Shown here: piece after piece, positions 3,457 through 63,156 of the stretch | Position numbering within the stretch: the first letter of the stretch is position 1 | Layout: the number at the start of each line of letters is the position of its first letter | IMG/VR virus record: IMGVR_UViG_3300025816_000006 | Coordinates: 98,691 to 162,690 of that record | Source of the DNA: a virus | Length of the DNA stretch: 64,000 bases | Reading direction: 5' to 3' (one strand) | Translations under genes and position numbers: made by a program | The notes under the pieces: generated by a model | The model's input: the letters and a program-made list of their open reading frames with translations, nothing else | The model's database searches: none | What the model was told of the DNA's origin: nothing

Positions 3457-4439
3457 TTTTTCATCCCGTATGCGAGGTCAAATACTTCGTTCCAATTGTT
3501 TATAAATTTATCTTCTGAAAACTTTTCTAAGATTGTTTCTCTTGCTGCCTGTCCCATTTTAGCTGCTAGCGAAGGATCTTCAAGTAGCTCCTTGGCGTAC
3601 CCCTTCAAGTCTTGCTCGTTGTTTGAGATATATCCATTAACGCCATTCTTTATTATTTCTGGTATCATACATGTAGCAGTAGACACAACCGCACAACCGC
3701 ATGACATGGCCTCTAAGAGCGATGTAGGCACAGGGCTTACTGTAGACGTATTTAAGAAAACGGACGCTTCCTGATACTCTGATGCTAGCTCATGGATGTC
3801 TTTTGCTGGCTTGGAAAGCCCCGGAGTGTTACCCACCAGTTTAACTGGTAGTCCTTCTGTAATTCTTTTCCAGCCAGAATAATTACAACAATAATCTCTA
3901 TTTACAAAATCGTTTACAACACTTAAAACTTTTCCATTCTTTTCTGTGTCATGTATTTTAAAAAGCTCTGTGTCTACTGAGTGATGGATAACTCTATTGT
4001 CGCAGTTCATGTTCCATTTGCCAGCAGAGTATTCTGATATAAATACATTAATATTACCAGCCATAGATCTAAAATTATTCAACTGACTTTCCGGCCAGTT
4101 GTCTATAGGTAGGGTATGCTCAAGAGAAACAATGGGTAAACCAAGTCTTTGATTAATACTGTGCGCTGCTTGAAATTGACCAAATTTACTATGAGATAAA
4201 ATAAAATCAAAATCTATACTTGTCATAATAGAATTTTTAGGCATAACGTAATAGTTTTCTGGAAGTTCTGAATAGTTGTTATCCCACTCTTTACATCCGT
4301 CATACCTAAAAGAAAAGAAATTATGACCAGTCTTTGCTTGTTGGTACTGGTATCTTTCATGTGTATCAAAAGTTAAAATATTGTATTTATCTTTCTTTTG
4401 TGTGGCTTTGCTTATAATAGAAGCTGTCTGACTACTCAT
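3453..4439 (-). CDS. GT4 glycosyltransferase
   Basis: SPVPTSLLEAMSCGCAVVST, NGVNGYI, MGQAARETI. Confidence 0.85.
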   Translation of the reverse strand: MSSQTASIISKATQKKDKYNILTFDTHERYQYQQAKTGHNFFSFRYDGCKEWDNNYSELPENYYVMPKNSIMTSIDFDFILSHSKFGQFQAAHSINQRLGLPIVSLEHTLPIDNWPESQLNNFRSMAGNINVFISEYSAGKWNMNCDNRVIHHSVDTELFKIHDTEKNGKVLSVVNDFVNRDYCCNYSGWKRITEGLPVKLVGNTPGLSKPAKDIHELASEYQEASVFLNTSTVSPVPTSLLEAMSCGCAVVSTATCMIPEIIKNGVNGYISNNEQDLKGYAKELLEDPSLAAKMGQAARETILEKFSEDKFINNWNEVFDLAYGMKK

Positions 4440-5568
4440 TAATAATATCCTTCATCAATTTTCCAATGTTTTCGTAAGAGAACATCTCTGCTCTTTTTAG
4501 TCCTGCTGCTTGATTTCTGTTTTTATACATAATAGGATTTTTATTCCAAGAATCAAAATACTGTCTCATTTGCTTTCTAGTACCCATTTCGCATGGTTGA
4601 AACCAGTATTCTCTACCCGTAAAGATGTCTGGAAAAGCAGCATCTGAACATTTACAAACAGAAAAAGCGCCATCCACTAAATGTCCAGTTTTCCAGTCTG
4701 ATTTATCTATAAACTCTTTTGGTCCACCAAAATTACTACAGATGGGAGTGTTGCCAAAAGCCATAGCGTCAAAAGAAGGAATAGACCAAGCCTCGCCGTG
4801 GGTAGGACATAAGAAACAATCCATGTTTTGATGAATAGAACATATGTCTTCGTCGGATGTTTTATCAGAGATGATGACGAGCTTTTTGTATTCATTAACA
4901 TCTTGATGCATTCTAAGGGAGGATTTTACCTTTGTTGAAATTTTATCAACATGCTCTGATATTTGCTCTGGAGAATATCCGAATTTGTTTATTTTTAATA
5001 TTAAAGAAGCTTTTTCTGATCTATCGAACTCACTAAAGAAACAAGTAAGTATAGACTCTATATTTTTTCTGTCGTTAACGTCGCCAATATAGTAAAACTT
5101 AAAACAGTTTTCTGTATCTGGAATAGAAAGTTCTGTATATCTTTTTTTGTATTTAGCGGTATCGCAAGTATGTGGTACAATCTTTACGTTTTCTATTCCA
5201 TCTCCTTTTATCGCTTTTTCGGAGTCTTTATTTGCAACCCAGACTTGATCTACCTGTTTTAAAAATTCAGTCCAAGGTAAATGAGTAATATCTAGAGTTT
5301 CCGTTTCAACAAAGGCAATATTTTTATCAAAACCATCTGAACCCACAATATGATGCGGTAAGACGTGTTGAATACAAATATTACAACCTTCTGTGCTTTT
5401 TGATTCTAGCGCTAAAATTCTTTTGTCAACGTCTTTCCTATCCTGAGTTAGTGTGACATTTCTGCAAACAACATCTACGCCAATCTTATCTAAAGCCAAA
5501 ATGTTGTCTATTGCAGCTTGTGACCAGCCACCAAACTCTTTATAGTGTCCTATGTATAAAACTTTCAT
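4432..5568 (-). CDS. GT4 glycosyltransferase
   Basis: RKNI and PTHGEAWSIPSFDAMAFGNTPICSNFGG; start set at MKVLYIG. Confidence 0.85.
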   Translation of the reverse strand: MKVLYIGHYKEFGGWSQAAIDNILALDKIGVDVVCRNVTLTQDRKDVDKRILALESKSTEGCNICIQHVLPHHIVGSDGFDKNIAFVETETLDITHLPWTEFLKQVDQVWVANKDSEKAIKGDGIENVKIVPHTCDTAKYKKRYTELSIPDTENCFKFYYIGDVNDRKNIESILTCFFSEFDRSEKASLILKINKFGYSPEQISEHVDKISTKVKSSLRMHQDVNEYKKLVIISDKTSDEDICSIHQNMDCFLCPTHGEAWSIPSFDAMAFGNTPICSNFGGPKEFIDKSDWKTGHLVDGAFSVCKCSDAAFPDIFTGREYWFQPCEMGTRKQMRQYFDSWNKNPIMYKNRNQAAGLKRAEMFSYENIGKLMKDIINE

Positions 5569-8269: not shown

Positions 8270-9829
8270 TTATATTTCATGTATTTTATTAATAATAAAT
8301 GAGCCATCTTTTTCTACCTCTCCACAGAATAATAAGTTAAGACCTTCGTCTAGTATGTATTTAGTTTTCTCTGTGGTCTCTGGAAAGACTACCACGTTGT
8401 CAATAGAGCAGCTTTCATCTTCTAGTGTTAGAAAACACATATCCTTGCCTTTACTCTTGCCTTTTTTGCATTTATACTTCTGCAACCTGCTTACATTTGC
8501 TACTATACAAATATCTTTGCCGTGTTTGCCATTTAAAATCTCTTTACACGTAGTGTTAGAGTGAGAAGTGTCAGATGCTTCTACCTTAGATAGTGATATG
8601 GGGCATCCCAAAAACTTCTTTTCTTGTTCAACGATCCACTCTGGGTCGTCGGAAAGATCGTAAGGAGGATTTTCTATGAAAAACATCTCATTTTCTATGA
8701 CTTGCTTTCTATCAACCTTGCTTGTCCCACCGCCTTCTTTCTTTGTGGGCGATAGTGCTTTGAAAGCATCGTAAAGATTATTCCACTTTCGCACAGGGTA
8801 ATTTAATGTCAGCCACTTCAATTCTGCCTTTGTTAGATTTTTAAATATTAGATATTCGTAAAGAGCTTTATTTCTAGTGACGCCAATAGATTCCGTAGAG
8901 AAGAACCCTACAGAACACAGAGCTTTAAAGGCTGTTGCATTTATTTTAGGCGATAAATATACAAGTACATCCAACCAAGTAAAGTGCTTAGGCTTTTTAC
9001 TTGTAGTTGCGCAGGCTTCAGATATTGCGTTTATAACCTTGTCGCCATTTACACCAGTTAATGATTTTATATCTTTAAGACCAAAGTAAACATTGCTCTT
9101 ATAAACGCCAAAAGTTCTATTAAACAAACTGATCTTAGGAATTTTTACTTCAATGTCAAACAGCTTTGCCTCAGAAACAAGCTCGTATATTTCTTGGTGC
9201 GGATCTTGCTTTTCATTCGCATAGGTTAGGTATGACAGAAAGAATTGCTTTGTATGATTAGCTTTATACCAAGCGCTCTTATAAGAATTTTCTGCGTAGC
9301 AAATTGCATGAGACTTATTAAACGAATACCTAGAAGACTTCTCAATCCACCCAAAAATTTCTTCTGCGGTTTCTACGTCTACAATTGCTTGCGTCACACA
9401 CCCCTCTAGAAAGTCTTTTTTAACTTTAGCCATGAGGTCTGCTTTCTTCTTTCCAATCGCCTTGCGAAGCACGTCTGCTTCTTGTAGGTTGAAACCTGCA
9501 AGCTCTTGAGCAATGCGCATGGACTGTTCTTGATAAATCAACACACCCTTGGTGGACTGCAATACGTCTGTTAGCGACTCATGCAAATACTTAATTACAT
9601 CTAAGCCGCTTTTTCTATCAACGTAGTGCTGAGTCATAGACTTGCCATCTGTTATCGCTTTTAGCGATCCCGGTCTAATCAAAGCGATCAATGCTCCAAG
9701 TTCTTCAAGGTTGGTAGGTTGTAGTCTTTTGGACCAAGCGCGTCCAAGATTGCTTTCTAGTTGAAAGACACCTTTAGTTCTACCTTCTTTAAAAAGATCC
9801 CAAGTCTTTTCATCGTTATAATCAATCAT
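8270..9829 (-). CDS. dnaE: DNA polymerase III alpha, C-terminal part (fingers/HhH/OB)
   Basis: GVFQLES, ALIRPG, GVLIYQEQSM, ADVLRKAIGKK, YSFNKSHA, MCFLTLEDE. Confidence 0.93.
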   Translation of the reverse strand: MIDYNDEKTWDLFKEGRTKGVFQLESNLGRAWSKRLQPTNLEELGALIALIRPGSLKAITDGKSMTQHYVDRKSGLDVIKYLHESLTDVLQSTKGVLIYQEQSMRIAQELAGFNLQEADVLRKAIGKKKADLMAKVKKDFLEGCVTQAIVDVETAEEIFGWIEKSSRYSFNKSHAICYAENSYKSAWYKANHTKQFFLSYLTYANEKQDPHQEIYELVSEAKLFDIEVKIPKISLFNRTFGVYKSNVYFGLKDIKSLTGVNGDKVINAISEACATTSKKPKHFTWLDVLVYLSPKINATAFKALCSVGFFSTESIGVTRNKALYEYLIFKNLTKAELKWLTLNYPVRKWNNLYDAFKALSPTKKEGGGTSKVDRKQVIENEMFFIENPPYDLSDDPEWIVEQEKKFLGCPISLSKVEASDTSHSNTTCKEILNGKHGKDICIVANVSRLQKYKCKKGKSKGKDMCFLTLEDESCSIDNVVVFPETTEKTKYILDEGLNLLFCGEVEKDGSFIINKIHEI

Positions 9830-10298: not shown

Positions 10299-10972
10299 AG
10301 GTAAGTATTCCCATCCGCAAATGCTTTTTCAAGTTTCAGGTTTCTATATACAGCGCGATGGGTCTTCATAAACTTAATCATTAGATTTGCCGTATCCTTT
10401 ACGTCCTGTAAGGCATCGTGAGCATTCTCTGTTGACATACCCATCCTGTCTCTAATCGCGTCCATGCTCCTAGATTTTACACTAGGATCTCCCTCTGTCC
10501 ACATATAATAGTTGTCCATCATGTCGATTTTATGAATTTGATGAAACAGCTTCTGTCTCTGTCTTTGGTCGTCCCAAGGTCCGTATTCTTTACAGAGTCT
10601 GTCTACGATAATCATATCGTATCCTAAAATGTTATATCCAGCAGCAATGGGTGCGAAGAACGAAGTTCCCTTCCAGTTATACTTGTCTACAAAAGCGCAA
10701 AACTTTTTCCATACAGCTTTTGGTTTAGGTGCTTTTGCTATTTCTTCTCTGGTTTGTCCTGTAACTTTTAGTGCGCCATCCTCAATAGGTCCAAGACCTT
10801 TCTTTGTGGCCTTTTCGTCGTCCGTTTCTGCCCAAATCTTGCTATTAAACTCACCTTTGAGTCTAAAGTTTCTTCCATCCAAAGCTATCGCCGCCAACTG
10901 AGTTGGCTGACATGTAACTGGATTTCTACCGCCTGTCTCAAAGTCAAAAACAATTATATCACGGTTCGACAT
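10295..10972 (-). CDS. dnaQ: DEDDh 3'-5' exonuclease (DnaQ/epsilon-like)
   Basis: VFDFETGG, GYNILGYD, AHDALQD (Exo I-III). Confidence 0.85.
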   Translation of the reverse strand: MSNRDIIVFDFETGGRNPVTCQPTQLAAIALDGRNFRLKGEFNSKIWAETDDEKATKKGLGPIEDGALKVTGQTREEIAKAPKPKAVWKKFCAFVDKYNWKGTSFFAPIAAGYNILGYDMIIVDRLCKEYGPWDDQRQRQKLFHQIHKIDMMDNYYMWTEGDPSVKSRSMDAIRDRMGMSTENAHDALQDVKDTANLMIKFMKTHRAVYRNLKLEKAFADGNTYL

Positions 10973-12629
10973 TATTTTCCTTCATTTTTACGGAATCTGG
11001 ATTGGCTACTATGTAGTCAATATACATAAGTTTGTCCAGCAGGTTAATTGCTAGAACGTCAAACTTAACGTGACCAAGTGCCTCTAAGTCTGCCATTTCT
11101 AGTCCTGCTATCTTTTCATCACTACTTTTTGAGTTTACCATAGGGCAAACTTCTGATAGTTTGTTTGCTGATATAACAACACCCGCAGCATGTTTGCCTT
11201 GAGTTTTCAGCGTACCCTCTATCTTGATCGCTTGTTCAAAATATTCTGCATAGTCACCTTCTAAGTAACCCTTCTCATTTATGTGACAATAATCATACAA
11301 GTCTTGTTCGTTGTTTTGCAACGCCCACCTAATAATAGATCTGTCTTCCTCGTCCATCTGTGATAGTTGATCAGAGATAGCCGCTTCGTCTGGAATATAT
11401 TTTGTAATCTCGTTCATCACGCTAAACCCACACGCTTCGTTTACACGTAGGATTTCTTTGATTGCGCTACGCCCCTGTAGTCTACCGAACGTCACCATCT
11501 GACTAACATTGCCGTGTCCGTATTTATCTTTGATATACGATATGATCTTATCTCTTTTCTTGCCGGGGATATCTATGTCGATATCTGGAAGTGACACATT
11601 GTCTTTGGTGTTTCTGCCACTATTATAGAAGCGCTCAAACAATAAGTCAAACTCAATCGGATCAATTTGTGTGATTCCAATCAGGTAAGATATTAAACAT
11701 CCAGCAGCAGAGCCACGACCCGGACCTACCATCCAACCTTGATCTACCGCATACTTGATAATATCACGAACAATAAGAAAGTAACCAAACAAATCTGCTT
11801 CTTCAATAACTTCAAATTCTTTCCTGAATCTGTCTCCATACTTTTGACGACCTTCTTCTTCTGTGATTTTTTCTGCGAGTAGATTTTTCCATCCTCTTCT
11901 AGCCAGTGTCCTTAGATAATCTTTTTCTGACTCTCCGTTAGGGGTATCAAACTTAGGAAGAATAGGTTTGCTTAGAATGTTATAATCTTCACACTGATCG
12001 TATATATCGTCAAGATTCTGTGTTCCTACTGGGTCTTCAAGCATAGCTTCTGTTGCTCCAGTTTTATCTGGAACAAAAAAATGAGAGTAGTCAAAAAACT
12101 TTTTGTTAGGAAAATCTTCTTTGTTTTTGAACTTCCTTCTCAATTTGGGAAGAGTAGTCTTCATTTCAGAGCAAAGCAAAATCCTGTGTAGATTAGCGTC
12201 TTCCGATTCTGTGTAATGCGAGTCTTGGAAGCATCTACTTTTCTCGTACCAGCTTTTTTTGATTGGCGAATCCGCAGCAGATTCTGCCAGAACAATTAAG
12301 TTTCCTTTGTTGCAAATTTTAGATAAGTCGCTTGCATTGTAGTCTCCATTTTCATCTAACAAAGACACAATCTTTATAAGGTCAAACCATCCTCTTTCGT
12401 TCTTCGCAAACAACGTGAAGCTGTCGAACGAACAGCCTATAATTGGCTTGATGTTGTTCGCTACGCAAGCTTGATAGAAAGCCACAGCGCCAGATATAGT
12501 CTTGTAGTCAGCGATACCGCAGGCGCGGAAGTCGTTATCTTTGCATTTTGCTGCAAGTTCTTTGGGTTTAGAAAACCCTTTCAGCAGTGAGTAGTGCGTG
12601 TAATTACAGAGTGGGAACCAAGTCATCAA
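10959..12629 (-). CDS. dnaE: DNA polymerase III alpha, N-terminal part (degenerate PHP plus palm/thumb)
   Basis: GPGRGSAAG, LLFERF, PDIDID, GKHAAGVVI, VKFDVL. Confidence 0.93.
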   Translation of the reverse strand: MMTWFPLCNYTHYSLLKGFSKPKELAAKCKDNDFRACGIADYKTISGAVAFYQACVANNIKPIIGCSFDSFTLFAKNERGWFDLIKIVSLLDENGDYNASDLSKICNKGNLIVLAESAADSPIKKSWYEKSRCFQDSHYTESEDANLHRILLCSEMKTTLPKLRRKFKNKEDFPNKKFFDYSHFFVPDKTGATEAMLEDPVGTQNLDDIYDQCEDYNILSKPILPKFDTPNGESEKDYLRTLARRGWKNLLAEKITEEEGRQKYGDRFRKEFEVIEEADLFGYFLIVRDIIKYAVDQGWMVGPGRGSAAGCLISYLIGITQIDPIEFDLLFERFYNSGRNTKDNVSLPDIDIDIPGKKRDKIISYIKDKYGHGNVSQMVTFGRLQGRSAIKEILRVNEACGFSVMNEITKYIPDEAAISDQLSQMDEEDRSIIRWALQNNEQDLYDYCHINEKGYLEGDYAEYFEQAIKIEGTLKTQGKHAAGVVISANKLSEVCPMVNSKSSDEKIAGLEMADLEALGHVKFDVLAINLLDKLMYIDYIVANPDSVKMKENNVEP

Positions 12630-40172: not shown

Positions 40173-40245
40173 TGACCCTACGGGAACTCGAATCCCGATT
40201 GCCGCCGTGAAAGGGCGGTGTCCTAACCGATTAGACGATAGGGCC
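40173..40245 (-). tRNA. tRNA-Glu(UUC)
   Basis: Cloverleaf GGCCCTA.../CCGCC-CTTTCAC-GGCGG/TTCGAGT; CCA not encoded. Confidence 0.93.
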
Positions 40246-40250
40246 GCAAG

Positions 40251-40325
40251 TGAGTGACGGGATTTGCACCCGCGAATCTAGTCTTGTCGATCTGTCTAAT
40301 CGCTCTAGGCTTCCGACTTCACTCA
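40251..40325 (-). ncRNA. tRNA-like element lacking a canonical D/anticodon arm
   Basis: TGAGTGA/TCACTCA closing stem; T-arm GCGGG-TGCAAAT-CCCGT. Confidence 0.5.
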
Positions 40326-40344
40326 TTTGTGCTACGATATAGTA

Positions 40345-40582
40345 AAGCCCCGTTTGGATAATAAGGACGAGGCGACTCCCCAGACAGCTTACGCTGCCAA
40401 TGCGAGACTTTCATCTGCAATTAAAAGGTTGATAGATTTTTAACGTAGCCCTTCTATCAACTACGGCATGAGATACATTACGTCATATTGTATGTCGAAT
40501 CTAAGTCATCCCCGTAAGTGGAGATGGAGGGAATTGCACCCTCGTCCATGACAACATCAATAATAATCTTTATACATGCTTG
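40345..40582 (-). ncRNA. ssrA: circularly permuted two-piece tmRNA; tag (A)ADESLALAA
   Basis: Acceptor piece (...GGACGAGGGTGCAATTCCCTCCATCTCCA, ends 40519) precedes GGGGATGACTTAGATTCGAC (starts 40513); G3-U70 pair; tag ORF 40418-40389; outer ends approximate. Confidence 0.9.
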
Positions 40583-40957
40583 TTAAAATGGCCCATCGTC
40601 TGCGCTATCATGAAATCTTGTGATAGCTTTCTCTAACGCTCCCTTAAACTTACCTGTAACAACATAAGAAAAACTACCGTCTGCTTCCACCATCTGCTCT
40701 AGCATCCCTTGGTGAAACATCATAAACAATTCTTCGCCAACATATTGCATGGCGACTTCTTTCATTTTTAGTATTGATGGCTTATCGTTCATTTCAAATT
40801 TCATTATGTTAAAGGAAACGCTTTCTGATTCTGGTCTTATATTCTCCACTTTATTCAAGTGGGACTTTGCTTTTCTCATAGTATCATACACGCCAAGTGG
40901 CTCAGAAACAACTCTTTCAGGCGTACTAATCAACATTTCTAATAAATATACTGTCAT
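40583..40957 (-). CDS. hypothetical protein
   Basis: ORF with RBS; ends DDGPF. Confidence 0.55.
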   Translation of the reverse strand: MTVYLLEMLISTPERVVSEPLGVYDTMRKAKSHLNKVENIRPESESVSFNIMKFEMNDKPSILKMKEVAMQYVGEELFMMFHQGMLEQMVEADGSFSYVVTGKFKGALEKAITRFHDSADDGPF

Positions 40958-40961
40958 TTTT

Positions 40962-41291
40962 TTATCCTTTGTAGGGCCATGTCTCTCTTAGTATATCGGT
41001 AACTCCGGGGATGTCAACCAGCCATCTTCCATATTTTCCTGTTTTTGTTGTTCTTATTTTTACCCACCATTCTTCATCTGGTAAATCCTCAAAGTTTATT
41101 TCTGCGACAGACTTTAATAATCCCGCACAGACAGCGGTAGCCTTTGACCAATCTTCATGTCCTCGTTCTGGCGTATCAACACCAATAAGTCTAGTTCTGA
41201 TCTTTATATTGATATTAAATCCAAGATCAACAATAAAGTCTACAGTGTCTCCATCAACAACACGATCAACTTTAGCATTATATTCATACAT
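40962..41291 (-). CDS. thermonuclease (SNase)-like protein
   Basis: RVVDGDTVD, RLIGVDTPE, GKYGRWL. Confidence 0.85.
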   Translation of the reverse strand: MYEYNAKVDRVVDGDTVDFIVDLGFNINIKIRTRLIGVDTPERGHEDWSKATAVCAGLLKSVAEINFEDLPDEEWWVKIRTTKTGKYGRWLVDIPGVTDILRETWPYKG

Positions 41292-54056: not shown

Positions 54057-54061
54057 GTAAG

Positions 54062-54132
54062 TAGTGCAGGTAGGAGTTGAACCTACGGAGGCGAGTATAT
54101 AAGACTCGCGTGGATAACCGATCCTCCGCACC
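54062..54132 (-). tRNA. atypical tRNA-Ile(UAU)
   Basis: 71 nt, reduced D-arm, 6-bp stem GCGAGT-CTTATAT-ACTCGC, normal T-arm. Confidence 0.75.
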
Positions 54133-63031: not shown

Positions 63032-63156
63032 TACCTCGCGAGGGAATCGAACCCCCGCGCCCCCCGCTAATCGCATCATGCACAACACTTTTAGCTTCGG
63101 ACTGTCCGCGAAACAGTCATCGGAATAACCCGCAGGCGACCCACCAAGGTCAAGGC
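63032..63156 (-). ncRNA. candidate tRNA-like RNA (T-arm, no clear cloverleaf)
   Basis: GGGGG-TTCGATT-CCCTC-GCGAGGT-A 3' end; internal hairpins. Confidence 0.4.

Follow-up and report, generated by a model that had tools for sequence, protein, structure and literature searches.

How does a virus come to carry a transfer-messenger RNA (tmRNA) gene whose two halves stand in swapped order with only five nucleotides (nt) between them, and from which bacterial lineage was the gene derived? The question is raised by a locus in a 64,000-nt stretch of phage DNA (the window), which forms the last 64 kb of IMG/VR virus record IMGVR_UViG_3300025816_000006, a sequence of 162,690 bp that is estimated to be 98% complete and has 39% G+C. 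Comparison with bacterial tmRNAs, phylogenetic analysis and the conservation of the gene in related contigs indicate that this is probably a working phage two-piece tmRNA gene, descended from the standard one-piece tmRNA of the host family Pirellulaceae and permuted apart from the alpha, beta and cyanobacterial (cyano) forms.

The gene lies on the minus strand at 40347-40579 and is 233 nt long, which agrees with the first-pass annotation of this DNA, where a compact permuted gene of about 240 nt was placed at 40345-40582 with the minus strand implicit in the description. ARAGORN reports a 'Permuted' tmRNA (tmRNA*) at 40298-40612 on the minus strand, with the 3' tRNA domain upstream of the 5' domain and a tag peptide ADESLALAA followed by a stop codon. 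The Rfam model RF04321 (tmRNA_permuted) matches end to end (model positions 1-213) at 40389-40579 with 89.4 bits against a cut-off of 47 (E 8e-16). Both checks suggested in that annotation thus call a permuted tmRNA, and together with direct reading they place the 3' acceptor half upstream of the 5' half with only CUUAC between them. The parts are as follows.

40519..40579, minus strand: acceptor piece, with the 3' strands of helix P2, the T arm (40527-40543), the acceptor 3' strand (40520-40526) and the discriminator A (40519); from model matches, direct reading and pair counts.
40514..40518, minus strand: intervening segment CUUAC, without CCA, predicted to be removed; from direct reading, ARAGORN and relatives.
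40347..40513, minus strand: coding piece, with the 5' acceptor strand from G1 (40513), the D-loop analogue, the 5' strands of P2, pseudoknot 1 (PK1), the tag frame and pseudoknot 2 (PK2); from models and direct reading.
40429-40465, minus strand: PK1, a true pseudoknot; both stems covary in relatives.
40389..40418, minus strand: tag frame, with resume codon GCA, peptide ADESLALAA and stop; from ARAGORN.
40347-40382, minus strand: PK2, the post-tag pseudoknot; from direct reading.

The acceptor stem has 7 bp and contains the G3-U70 pair, and CCA is not encoded; these features and the tag could all be read directly, as had been claimed, and what had been called a pk1-like region is the true pseudoknot listed above. 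The T arm and acceptor stem closed by a 6-nt loop fold at -17.9 kcal/mol and make up 95% of the ensemble, and none of 200 shuffled sequences folded as well. Across the phage family tRNA position 55 in the T loop is G, as against U in Pirellulaceae tmRNAs. This G55 was considered as a phage signature and rejected, as the same loop is present in more than 120 bacterial contigs, mostly of Omnitrophota and Patescibacteria.

The sequence of both pieces points to planctomycetes. By BLAST, the stretch of the coding piece between G1 and the stop codon (nt 1-126) shares 72% identity with standard tmRNAs of Rhodopirellula and Planctomycetaceae (74 bits), and Rhodocyclaceae sequences reach at most 31 bits. 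The acceptor piece aligns over its full length and without gaps to the 3' ends of Pirellulaceae tmRNAs at ~71% identity, whereas with beta tmRNAs the alignment is limited to the T arm and acceptor; it retains a block before the T arm that is common to standard tmRNAs of several phyla and that beta-type genes are without. The 5' part of the acceptor piece was also tried alone as a lineage marker and was discarded, as it gave no discrimination between phyla.

A first genome-wide pattern was too specific and gave no matches. A motif running from the 3' side of PK1 through the resume region to the start of the tag was found in 12 contigs among 185,579 species genomes, ten of which are Planctomycetota, chiefly Rubripirellula; the remaining two are a misbinned phage contig of the present family and a 'Nitrosopumilus' metagenome-assembled genome (MAG; L219) with a planctomycete-like standard tmRNA. 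The tag is exactly ADESLALAA in 5/12 standard tmRNAs from this search, its bearers including Rubripirellula, Rhodopirellula and other Pirellulaceae; beta tags are of the form ANDE(Q/R)FA(I/L/V)AA, unlike ADESLALAA. A sequence-only profile of the family's coding piece (profile R1) gave 35-73 bits in 84 of 101 Pirellulaceae genomes (the Rubripirellula family). In planctomycetes outside this family the range was 19-40 bits, and in Burkholderiales, with matches in 6 of 141 genomes, no score exceeded 22 bits; on other phage permuted tmRNAs it likewise reached 22 bits at most. Over both pieces, the nearest sequence relatives of the gene are found in the Pirellulaceae ssrA lineage and the tag is the same, with support from approximately unbiased (AU) tests lacking.

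The gene form in that lineage is the standard one. Every planctomycete tmRNA called by ARAGORN among the loci checked was of standard form, and RF04321 was above its cut-off in none of 121 phylum-sampled and none of 121 family-sampled planctomycete genomes. A published tmRNA table lists 1914 standard tmRNAs and one permuted tmRNA ('alpha') among 2512 Planctomycetota genomes (PMC11915505), and this sole permuted entry may be a misbinned phage contig like the one found here in an 'Aliivibrio' MAG (L218). Trees were built from a core of fewer than 200 columns (G1 to stop plus the last 62 nt) with 122 rows, which included standard tmRNAs of Bacillota and Pseudomonadota. The phage family forms one group (100/99) nested in the planctomycetes at nodes supported by 99/81 and 98/87, and a tree of the coding part only gave the same placement with one node at 99/98. 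All other permuted tmRNAs group with those of Pseudomonadota. The phylogeny that had been proposed as a check therefore answers in part: the family nests in the planctomycetes, but AU tests leave the alternatives unrejected. As for the suggestion of 'an independent permutation or an acquisition', the two turn out to apply together: the RNA has its nearest match in the standard one-piece tmRNA of the host family, and no permuted genes were found in that phylum, although independence lacks AU support (p 0.11-0.25). On comparison of these sequences, an independent permutation is favoured, not proven.

A second and separate lead to the host came from a tRNA-Glu(UUC) gene downstream of the tmRNA gene, which is 97% identical to the tRNA-Glu of a Rubripirellula MAG. 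The exact core of the phage tRNA-Glu is present in only two of the 185,579 species genomes, one of them this MAG, in which it lies on a contig of 53% G+C that is otherwise unrelated to the phage. The same MAG (G001) carries a standard one-piece tmRNA (RF00023, 162.7 bits) with the tag ADENLALAA and with a PK1 and resume region very similar to those of the phage. Since the nearest relatives of the phage gene are Pirellulaceae standard tmRNAs, a host in the marine Pirellulaceae (Planctomycetota) is supported, and the earlier suggestion of a probable planctomycete phage is borne out by the viral origin of the record, the tRNA-Glu and the match of both the tag and the surrounding RNA to Pirellulaceae tmRNAs.

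The gene is not confined to this one record. More than 25 contigs make up a marine phage family that carries this tmRNA: a pattern search with the 5' part found 2 IMG/VR contigs and 16 marine metagenome contigs, and one with the region from PK1 to the tag found 10 further contigs in IMG/VR as well as a phage contig that had been misbinned with an 'Aliivibrio' MAG. The latter (L218) is 6.6 kb long with 39.6% G+C. The first-pass annotation had noted that near identity to catalogued phage tmRNAs would remove the novelty of the gene; BLASTN of the gene against 50,697 GenBank phage records gave no match.

When 14 distinct members of the family were aligned, standard pairs were present in 92% of pair cells, compared with 44-51% in slid controls. 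In 16 pairs both sides had changed, and none of 500 shuffles reached the observed covariation. The covarying parts are the acceptor stem, the T stem, P2, both PK1 stems and stem 1 of PK2; the outer P2 helix, which is offset in the automatic alignment, also covaries by eye. G3-U70 is invariant in the 14 relatives, with neighbouring pairs that covary. The tag peptide is constant in the core family despite synonymous differences. Given the paired cells, the changes on both sides and a constant tag with synonymous differences, the pattern is that of an RNA selected for its tRNA-like and also for its mRNA-like roles.

The spacer varies much more than the RNA around it. CUUAC is found in at least 15 contigs (including L185, L186, L188, L189, L191-L194, L218, L408, L409, L413, L415 and L416) and UUUAC in one (L196), and these 5-nt-spacer contigs diverge by up to 21%. 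Among seven of them that are 79-98% identical there are compensatory changes in eight pairs, and further 5-nt-spacer members have other T-stem and acceptor-stem pairs. Since divergent contigs with compensatory changes share it, the 5-nt spacer is an old and stable state, neither a slip of assembly nor a fresh lesion. Elsewhere in the family, on nearly the same RNA body, the spacer measures 17-19 nt (several contigs), 66, 70, 93 or ~610 nt. The 66-nt spacer (L197 and L200) starts with CUU and ends with AC, so that CUUAC looks like an internal deletion of it. The spacers of 70 nt (L198) and 93 nt (L190) contain an encoded CCA and a long hairpin. The 5-nt linker stressed in the earlier description is thus present but is not unique, as other phage tmRNA lineages have linkers that are just as short: when spacers of 1-14 nt were sought, ten further viral contigs turned up with lengths of 5-7 nt, and two of them combine 5 nt with the lack of CCA.

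Several observations on spacers stand beside this. In L414 the spacer at 4352-4963 (minus strand) is ~610 nt long and includes a site resembling a promoter, a ribosome-binding site and an open reading frame (ORF) of 182 codons with an HNH-endonuclease-like motif; the ORF stop lies inside the tmRNA 5' acceptor strand, and a second partial copy of the acceptor 3' strand follows 12 nt after the first. The close relatives L410-L412 are similar cases. In Rhodocyclaceae/Azonexus assemblies (L075, L081, L104, L136, L142 and L176) beta-type spacers are 6-7 nt long as opposed to the usual 27-45-nt hairpin. At its base the spacer hairpin reads CCA, one base, AAGCA..., with a complement ending ...UGA before G1, and this base is common to L190 and L198, to L016, L022 and L025 from other phages, and to the Rhodocyclaceae loci L070-L184. 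A similar short motif opens the 3' trailers of Pirellulaceae tmRNAs, directly behind the discriminator, and the shared hairpin base may be a processing signal or may reflect shared ancestry. Spacer sequences had no BLAST similarity outside the family, and host 5' flanks showed no consistent likeness to the 3' end of the spacer.

The surroundings of the gene are set out below.

40990..41017, minus strand: candidate sigma-70-like promoter match (11/12), upstream of the 124-aa ORF; from a consensus scan.
40583..40957, minus strand: conserved ORF of 124 aa, syntenic in relatives, with its stop 3 nt before the acceptor piece; no PHROG, a weak sub-threshold match to DUF7336.
40324..40341, minus strand: remnant of a tRNA-Asn(GUU), first 18 nt; intact there in L185, L189, L193, L197, L198 and L200.
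40250..40325, minus strand: tRNA-shaped element of 76 nt with a perfect 7-bp terminal stem and a T arm (loop UGCAAAU) and no normal D or anticodon arms; tRNA model 15.5 bits, and fold.
40173..40245, minus strand: the tRNA-Glu(UUC), CCA not encoded.

The same ORF end lies upstream of the tmRNA gene in L185, L189 and L194. Downstream, the tRNA-shaped element is followed by tRNA-Glu, which is followed in turn by the next ORF and its ribosome-binding site. In most relatives an intact tRNA-Asn comes after the tmRNA, and the tRNA-shaped element is missing; the window and L414 keep only 18 nt of the tRNA-Asn, and the element is nearly unchanged in L414 (remnant and element at ~4096-4190). Its T arm is like that of the tmRNA, and as a whole it resembles the 3' tRNA-like half of a tmRNA. 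It may be a mimic of the tRNA-like domain without a coding sequence (CDS) or a stray copy of the acceptor half, and by cleavage at its 5' end RNase P may set the 3' end of the coding piece.

Several results weigh against descent from a Pirellulaceae gene by a separate permutation. The best of the Rfam lineage models is the beta model RF01850, with an E value of 2e-22 and 73.8 bits for the window, which is under the cut-off of 84, and with 90-92 bits in L185, L188 and L189, where the score comes partly from the flanking tRNA. The alpha two-piece model RF01849 (cut-off 50) gave no report for the window at gathering thresholds, and a more distant relative (L017) scored 67 bits with it over part of the model. 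PK2 is not aligned to that of the host in profile searches, in which matches end near position 127, and its loop resembles that of beta tmRNAs; a pattern of the tag end and PK2 loop matched mostly Rhodocyclaceae. By eye, the 5' side and stem 2 of PK2 are common with the host PK2. The hairpin base of L190 and L198 resembles the spacers of unrelated phage and beta tmRNAs. Lastly, all three AU constraints were non-significant (p 0.11-0.25): placing all permuted tmRNAs in one clade costs 31-32 log-likelihood (lnL) units and is not rejected (p 0.11-0.12), nor is a planctomycete clade without the phage family (16 units, p 0.24-0.25). That these tests are not decisive is unsurprising with an alignment of fewer than 200 columns. 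The most serious alternative built on these results, which we regard as unlikely although worth keeping in view, is a mosaic in which an older beta-like phage two-piece scaffold, of a kind common in aquatic phages, was partly overwritten through recombination with a planctomycete-host tmRNA, so that the permutation was inherited. It would account for the beta model, for the PK2 loop and tag-end motif shared with Rhodocyclaceae, for the hairpin base shared with L016, L022, L025 and beta bacteria, and for the single permuted clade that the AU tests leave standing. Yet both host-like pieces (~71-72%, colinear) lie in reversed order, so two conversion tracts would be needed; the other phage permuted tmRNAs score low with the coding-piece profile; the standard-type block before the T arm is kept; the beta score of the relatives owes something to the adjacent tRNA; and the similar motif in Pirellulaceae 3' trailers offers a shared processing signal as another explanation of the hairpin base. 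That the gene is simply an ordinary member of the beta two-piece lineage, from or co-evolving with a betaproteobacterial host, was close to the first reading, in which beta-lineage descent was taken from Rfam and the Rhodocyclaceae pattern matches; that reading was dropped and the origin moved to planctomycetes because of the tRNA-Glu lead to Rubripirellula and the profile searches. RF01850 remains the top lineage model and three relatives pass its cut-off, but the window itself does not, the profile separates Burkholderiales from Pirellulaceae, the tag is that of Pirellulaceae and not of beta tmRNAs, and the tRNA-Glu and trees join the family to planctomycetes. Beta membership is accordingly very improbable, and the best match to the beta model looks like shared architecture.

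Two further alternatives concern what the RNA is rather than its origin. The gene could really be a standard one-piece tmRNA composed of the coding piece and the downstream element at 40250-40325, with the upstream acceptor piece as a leftover, and in L414 RF00023 does span the coding piece and element with 45.6 bits, just under its cut-off of 47. The 3' strand of the element is nevertheless mismatched to GGGGAUG and gives no G3-U70, whereas pairing with the upstream piece is perfect and shows covariation; a perfect terminal stem of 7 bp is formed within the element itself, and most relatives have tRNA-Asn in place of the element, all of which makes this reading scarcely credible. A decoy for SmpB or ribosomes, in which the RNA stays uncut or uncharged owing to its very short spacer, like the CDS-less tmRNA of phage DS6A (PMC11915505), is also improbable. 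In its favour, a 6-nt loop on the acceptor stem is an untried substrate. In addition, the base before G1 is C, and bacterial RNase P prefers U before the cleavage site. On the other side, the tag frame, resume context, PK1 and G3-U70 are conserved across a diverged family although a decoy needs none of them, the tag peptide stays identical to that of the host through synonymous changes, the same RNA body occurs with long or short spacers, and permuted tRNA genes with 1-nt spacers are known (PMC3978253).

Descent from a Pirellulaceae standard tmRNA would proceed as follows. An ancestor of the phage group would have captured a host-type gene, the halves of which were then swapped in order with the loss of pseudoknots 3 and 4, giving 233 nt instead of ~375 nt, in an event separate from the alpha-, beta- and cyanobacterial permutations. 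We lean towards the view that this was a further independent origin of a permuted tmRNA, inside a virus and from a standard planctomycete-host tmRNA, with the unpermuted parent type persisting in the host at ~72% identity. The gene would be co-transcribed with the upstream ORF and the downstream tRNA cluster, and as the stop of the 124-codon ORF lies 3 nt upstream, leaving no room for a promoter of its own, and the tRNA-shaped element, tRNA-Glu and the next ORF follow downstream, tRNA-processing enzymes probably release the RNA from a polycistronic transcript. Host RNase P would cut 5' of G1 (40513) and free the coding piece; the five spacer bases left on the acceptor piece would be trimmed by host 3' processing, and the host CCA-adding enzyme would add CCA. 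Since a free 3' end is needed, cleavage into two base-paired RNAs is expected, and the pieces would be held together by helix P2 and the acceptor stem.

The host alanyl-tRNA synthetase would charge the RNA through G3-U70, and host SmpB and EF-Tu would carry it to stalled ribosomes, where the host degron (Ala + ADESLALAA) would be added. Neither SmpB nor a CCA-adding enzyme was found in the phage; both were present in all three Pirellulaceae genomes searched, SmpB over its cut-off. A search of host genomes for RNase Z gave only sub-threshold metallo-beta-lactamase matches. Encoded CCA is missing from all five phage tRNAs and from most of the Pirellulaceae tmRNA genes checked, so CCA addition should be routine in this host. 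Because the phage uses the tag of its host, its RNA should feed the degradation pathway of the host and not divert it. The benefit, which like the processing, charging and tagging we infer, would be more ribosome-rescue capacity during infection, as host transcription declines and truncated mRNAs accumulate. This is in line with the proposal that the tmRNA of phage Melnitz keeps hijacked translation running (PMC9004378). A glutamine riboswitch like that of Melnitz was found neither in the window nor in its relatives.

Set beside the standard tmRNA of Pirellulaceae (RF00023), the phage gene has the same tag, PK1 design and resume context, ~72% identity from G1 to stop and ~71% in the 3' part, and likewise no encoded CCA. 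It differs in its swapped halves, its length (233 nt vs ~375 nt), the absence of pseudoknots 3 and 4, a shortened PK2 and G55 where the host has U, and in being virus-encoded within a tRNA cluster. Permutation of tmRNA has been treated as a rare event, seen in mitochondria and three bacterial lineages. In the current catalogue every permuted tmRNA gene is assigned to the alpha, beta or cyano type (PMC11915505). With the beta two-piece tmRNA (RF01850; Sharkady and Williams 2004, as cited in PMC9004378) the phage gene has its layout in common, namely acceptor piece, spacer and coding piece, the last containing PK1, the tag and a single post-tag pseudoknot whose loop is similar, but it falls below the family cut-off, its profile, tag and trees lead to planctomycetes, and its spacer has 5 nt in place of the 27-45-nt hairpin of Rhodocyclaceae.

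Phage two-piece tmRNAs as such are already known, from the OM43 phage Melnitz, pelagimyophages and cyanophages (Buchholz et al. 2022, PMC9004378), and 53 of 133 distinct phage tmRNAs are two-piece, nearly all of them from aquatic phages (PMC9004378). Like those of the Melnitz type, this gene is a permuted ssrA without SmpB in a large aquatic phage of myovirus type; those group with alpha, beta or cyano permuted tmRNAs, whereas this family groups with a standard-form host lineage and has no glutamine riboswitch. The permuted tRNA genes of red and green algae and of Thermofilum, with spacers down to 1 nt (Soma 2014 review, PMC3978253), also have the 3' half first and a short 'acceptor loop' that is cut by RNase P and a 3' enzyme before CCA addition; they mature through a circular intermediate to one piece, whereas the phage product would stay in two pieces and carry a tag template. 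In the collection of papers that was searched, none links planctomycetes, phages and permuted tmRNA. What is new here is a permuted tmRNA with its nearest relatives among the standard tmRNAs of a phylum in which permuted genes were not found, the assignment to a Pirellulaceae host, and the extreme range of spacers with a stable 5-nt form.

Beyond this locus, the phage record contains a T4-type replication module. The genes of the record include rIIA, rIIB, a split family-B DNA polymerase, a DnaB-type helicase, ribonucleotide reductase, dCMP deaminase and thymidylate synthase, and the helicase is less than 28% identical to any helicase of a cultured phage. The family-B DNA polymerase is in two ORFs at 8270-9829 and 10959-12629 of the window (minus strand); for the ~1.1 kb between them, a mobile intron, an intein-free split and an endonuclease gene are all candidates. 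ARAGORN calls a tRNA-Ile(UAU) at 54061-54132 (minus strand), for which the Rfam tRNA model is silent at its gathering score and which has a similar gene in L195. A simple scan found an acceptor-like stem and T arm without a full cloverleaf at ~63033-63114 of the window and at 4608-4709 of the genome, both on the minus strand.

If this origin is true, permutation of tmRNA can arise anew, and in viruses, and model-based typing such as 'beta-type' can then mislead. Tag identity together with tmRNA similarity would be a strong and cheap host marker for uncultured phages, and here it links a group of 163-kb marine phages to the Pirellulaceae, for which few phages are known. The series of spacers of 5, 17-19, 66, 70, 93 and ~610 nt makes the requirements of two-piece processing directly testable, and the family would be a natural series for how permutation arises and for the minimum spacer that RNase P and 3' maturation need.

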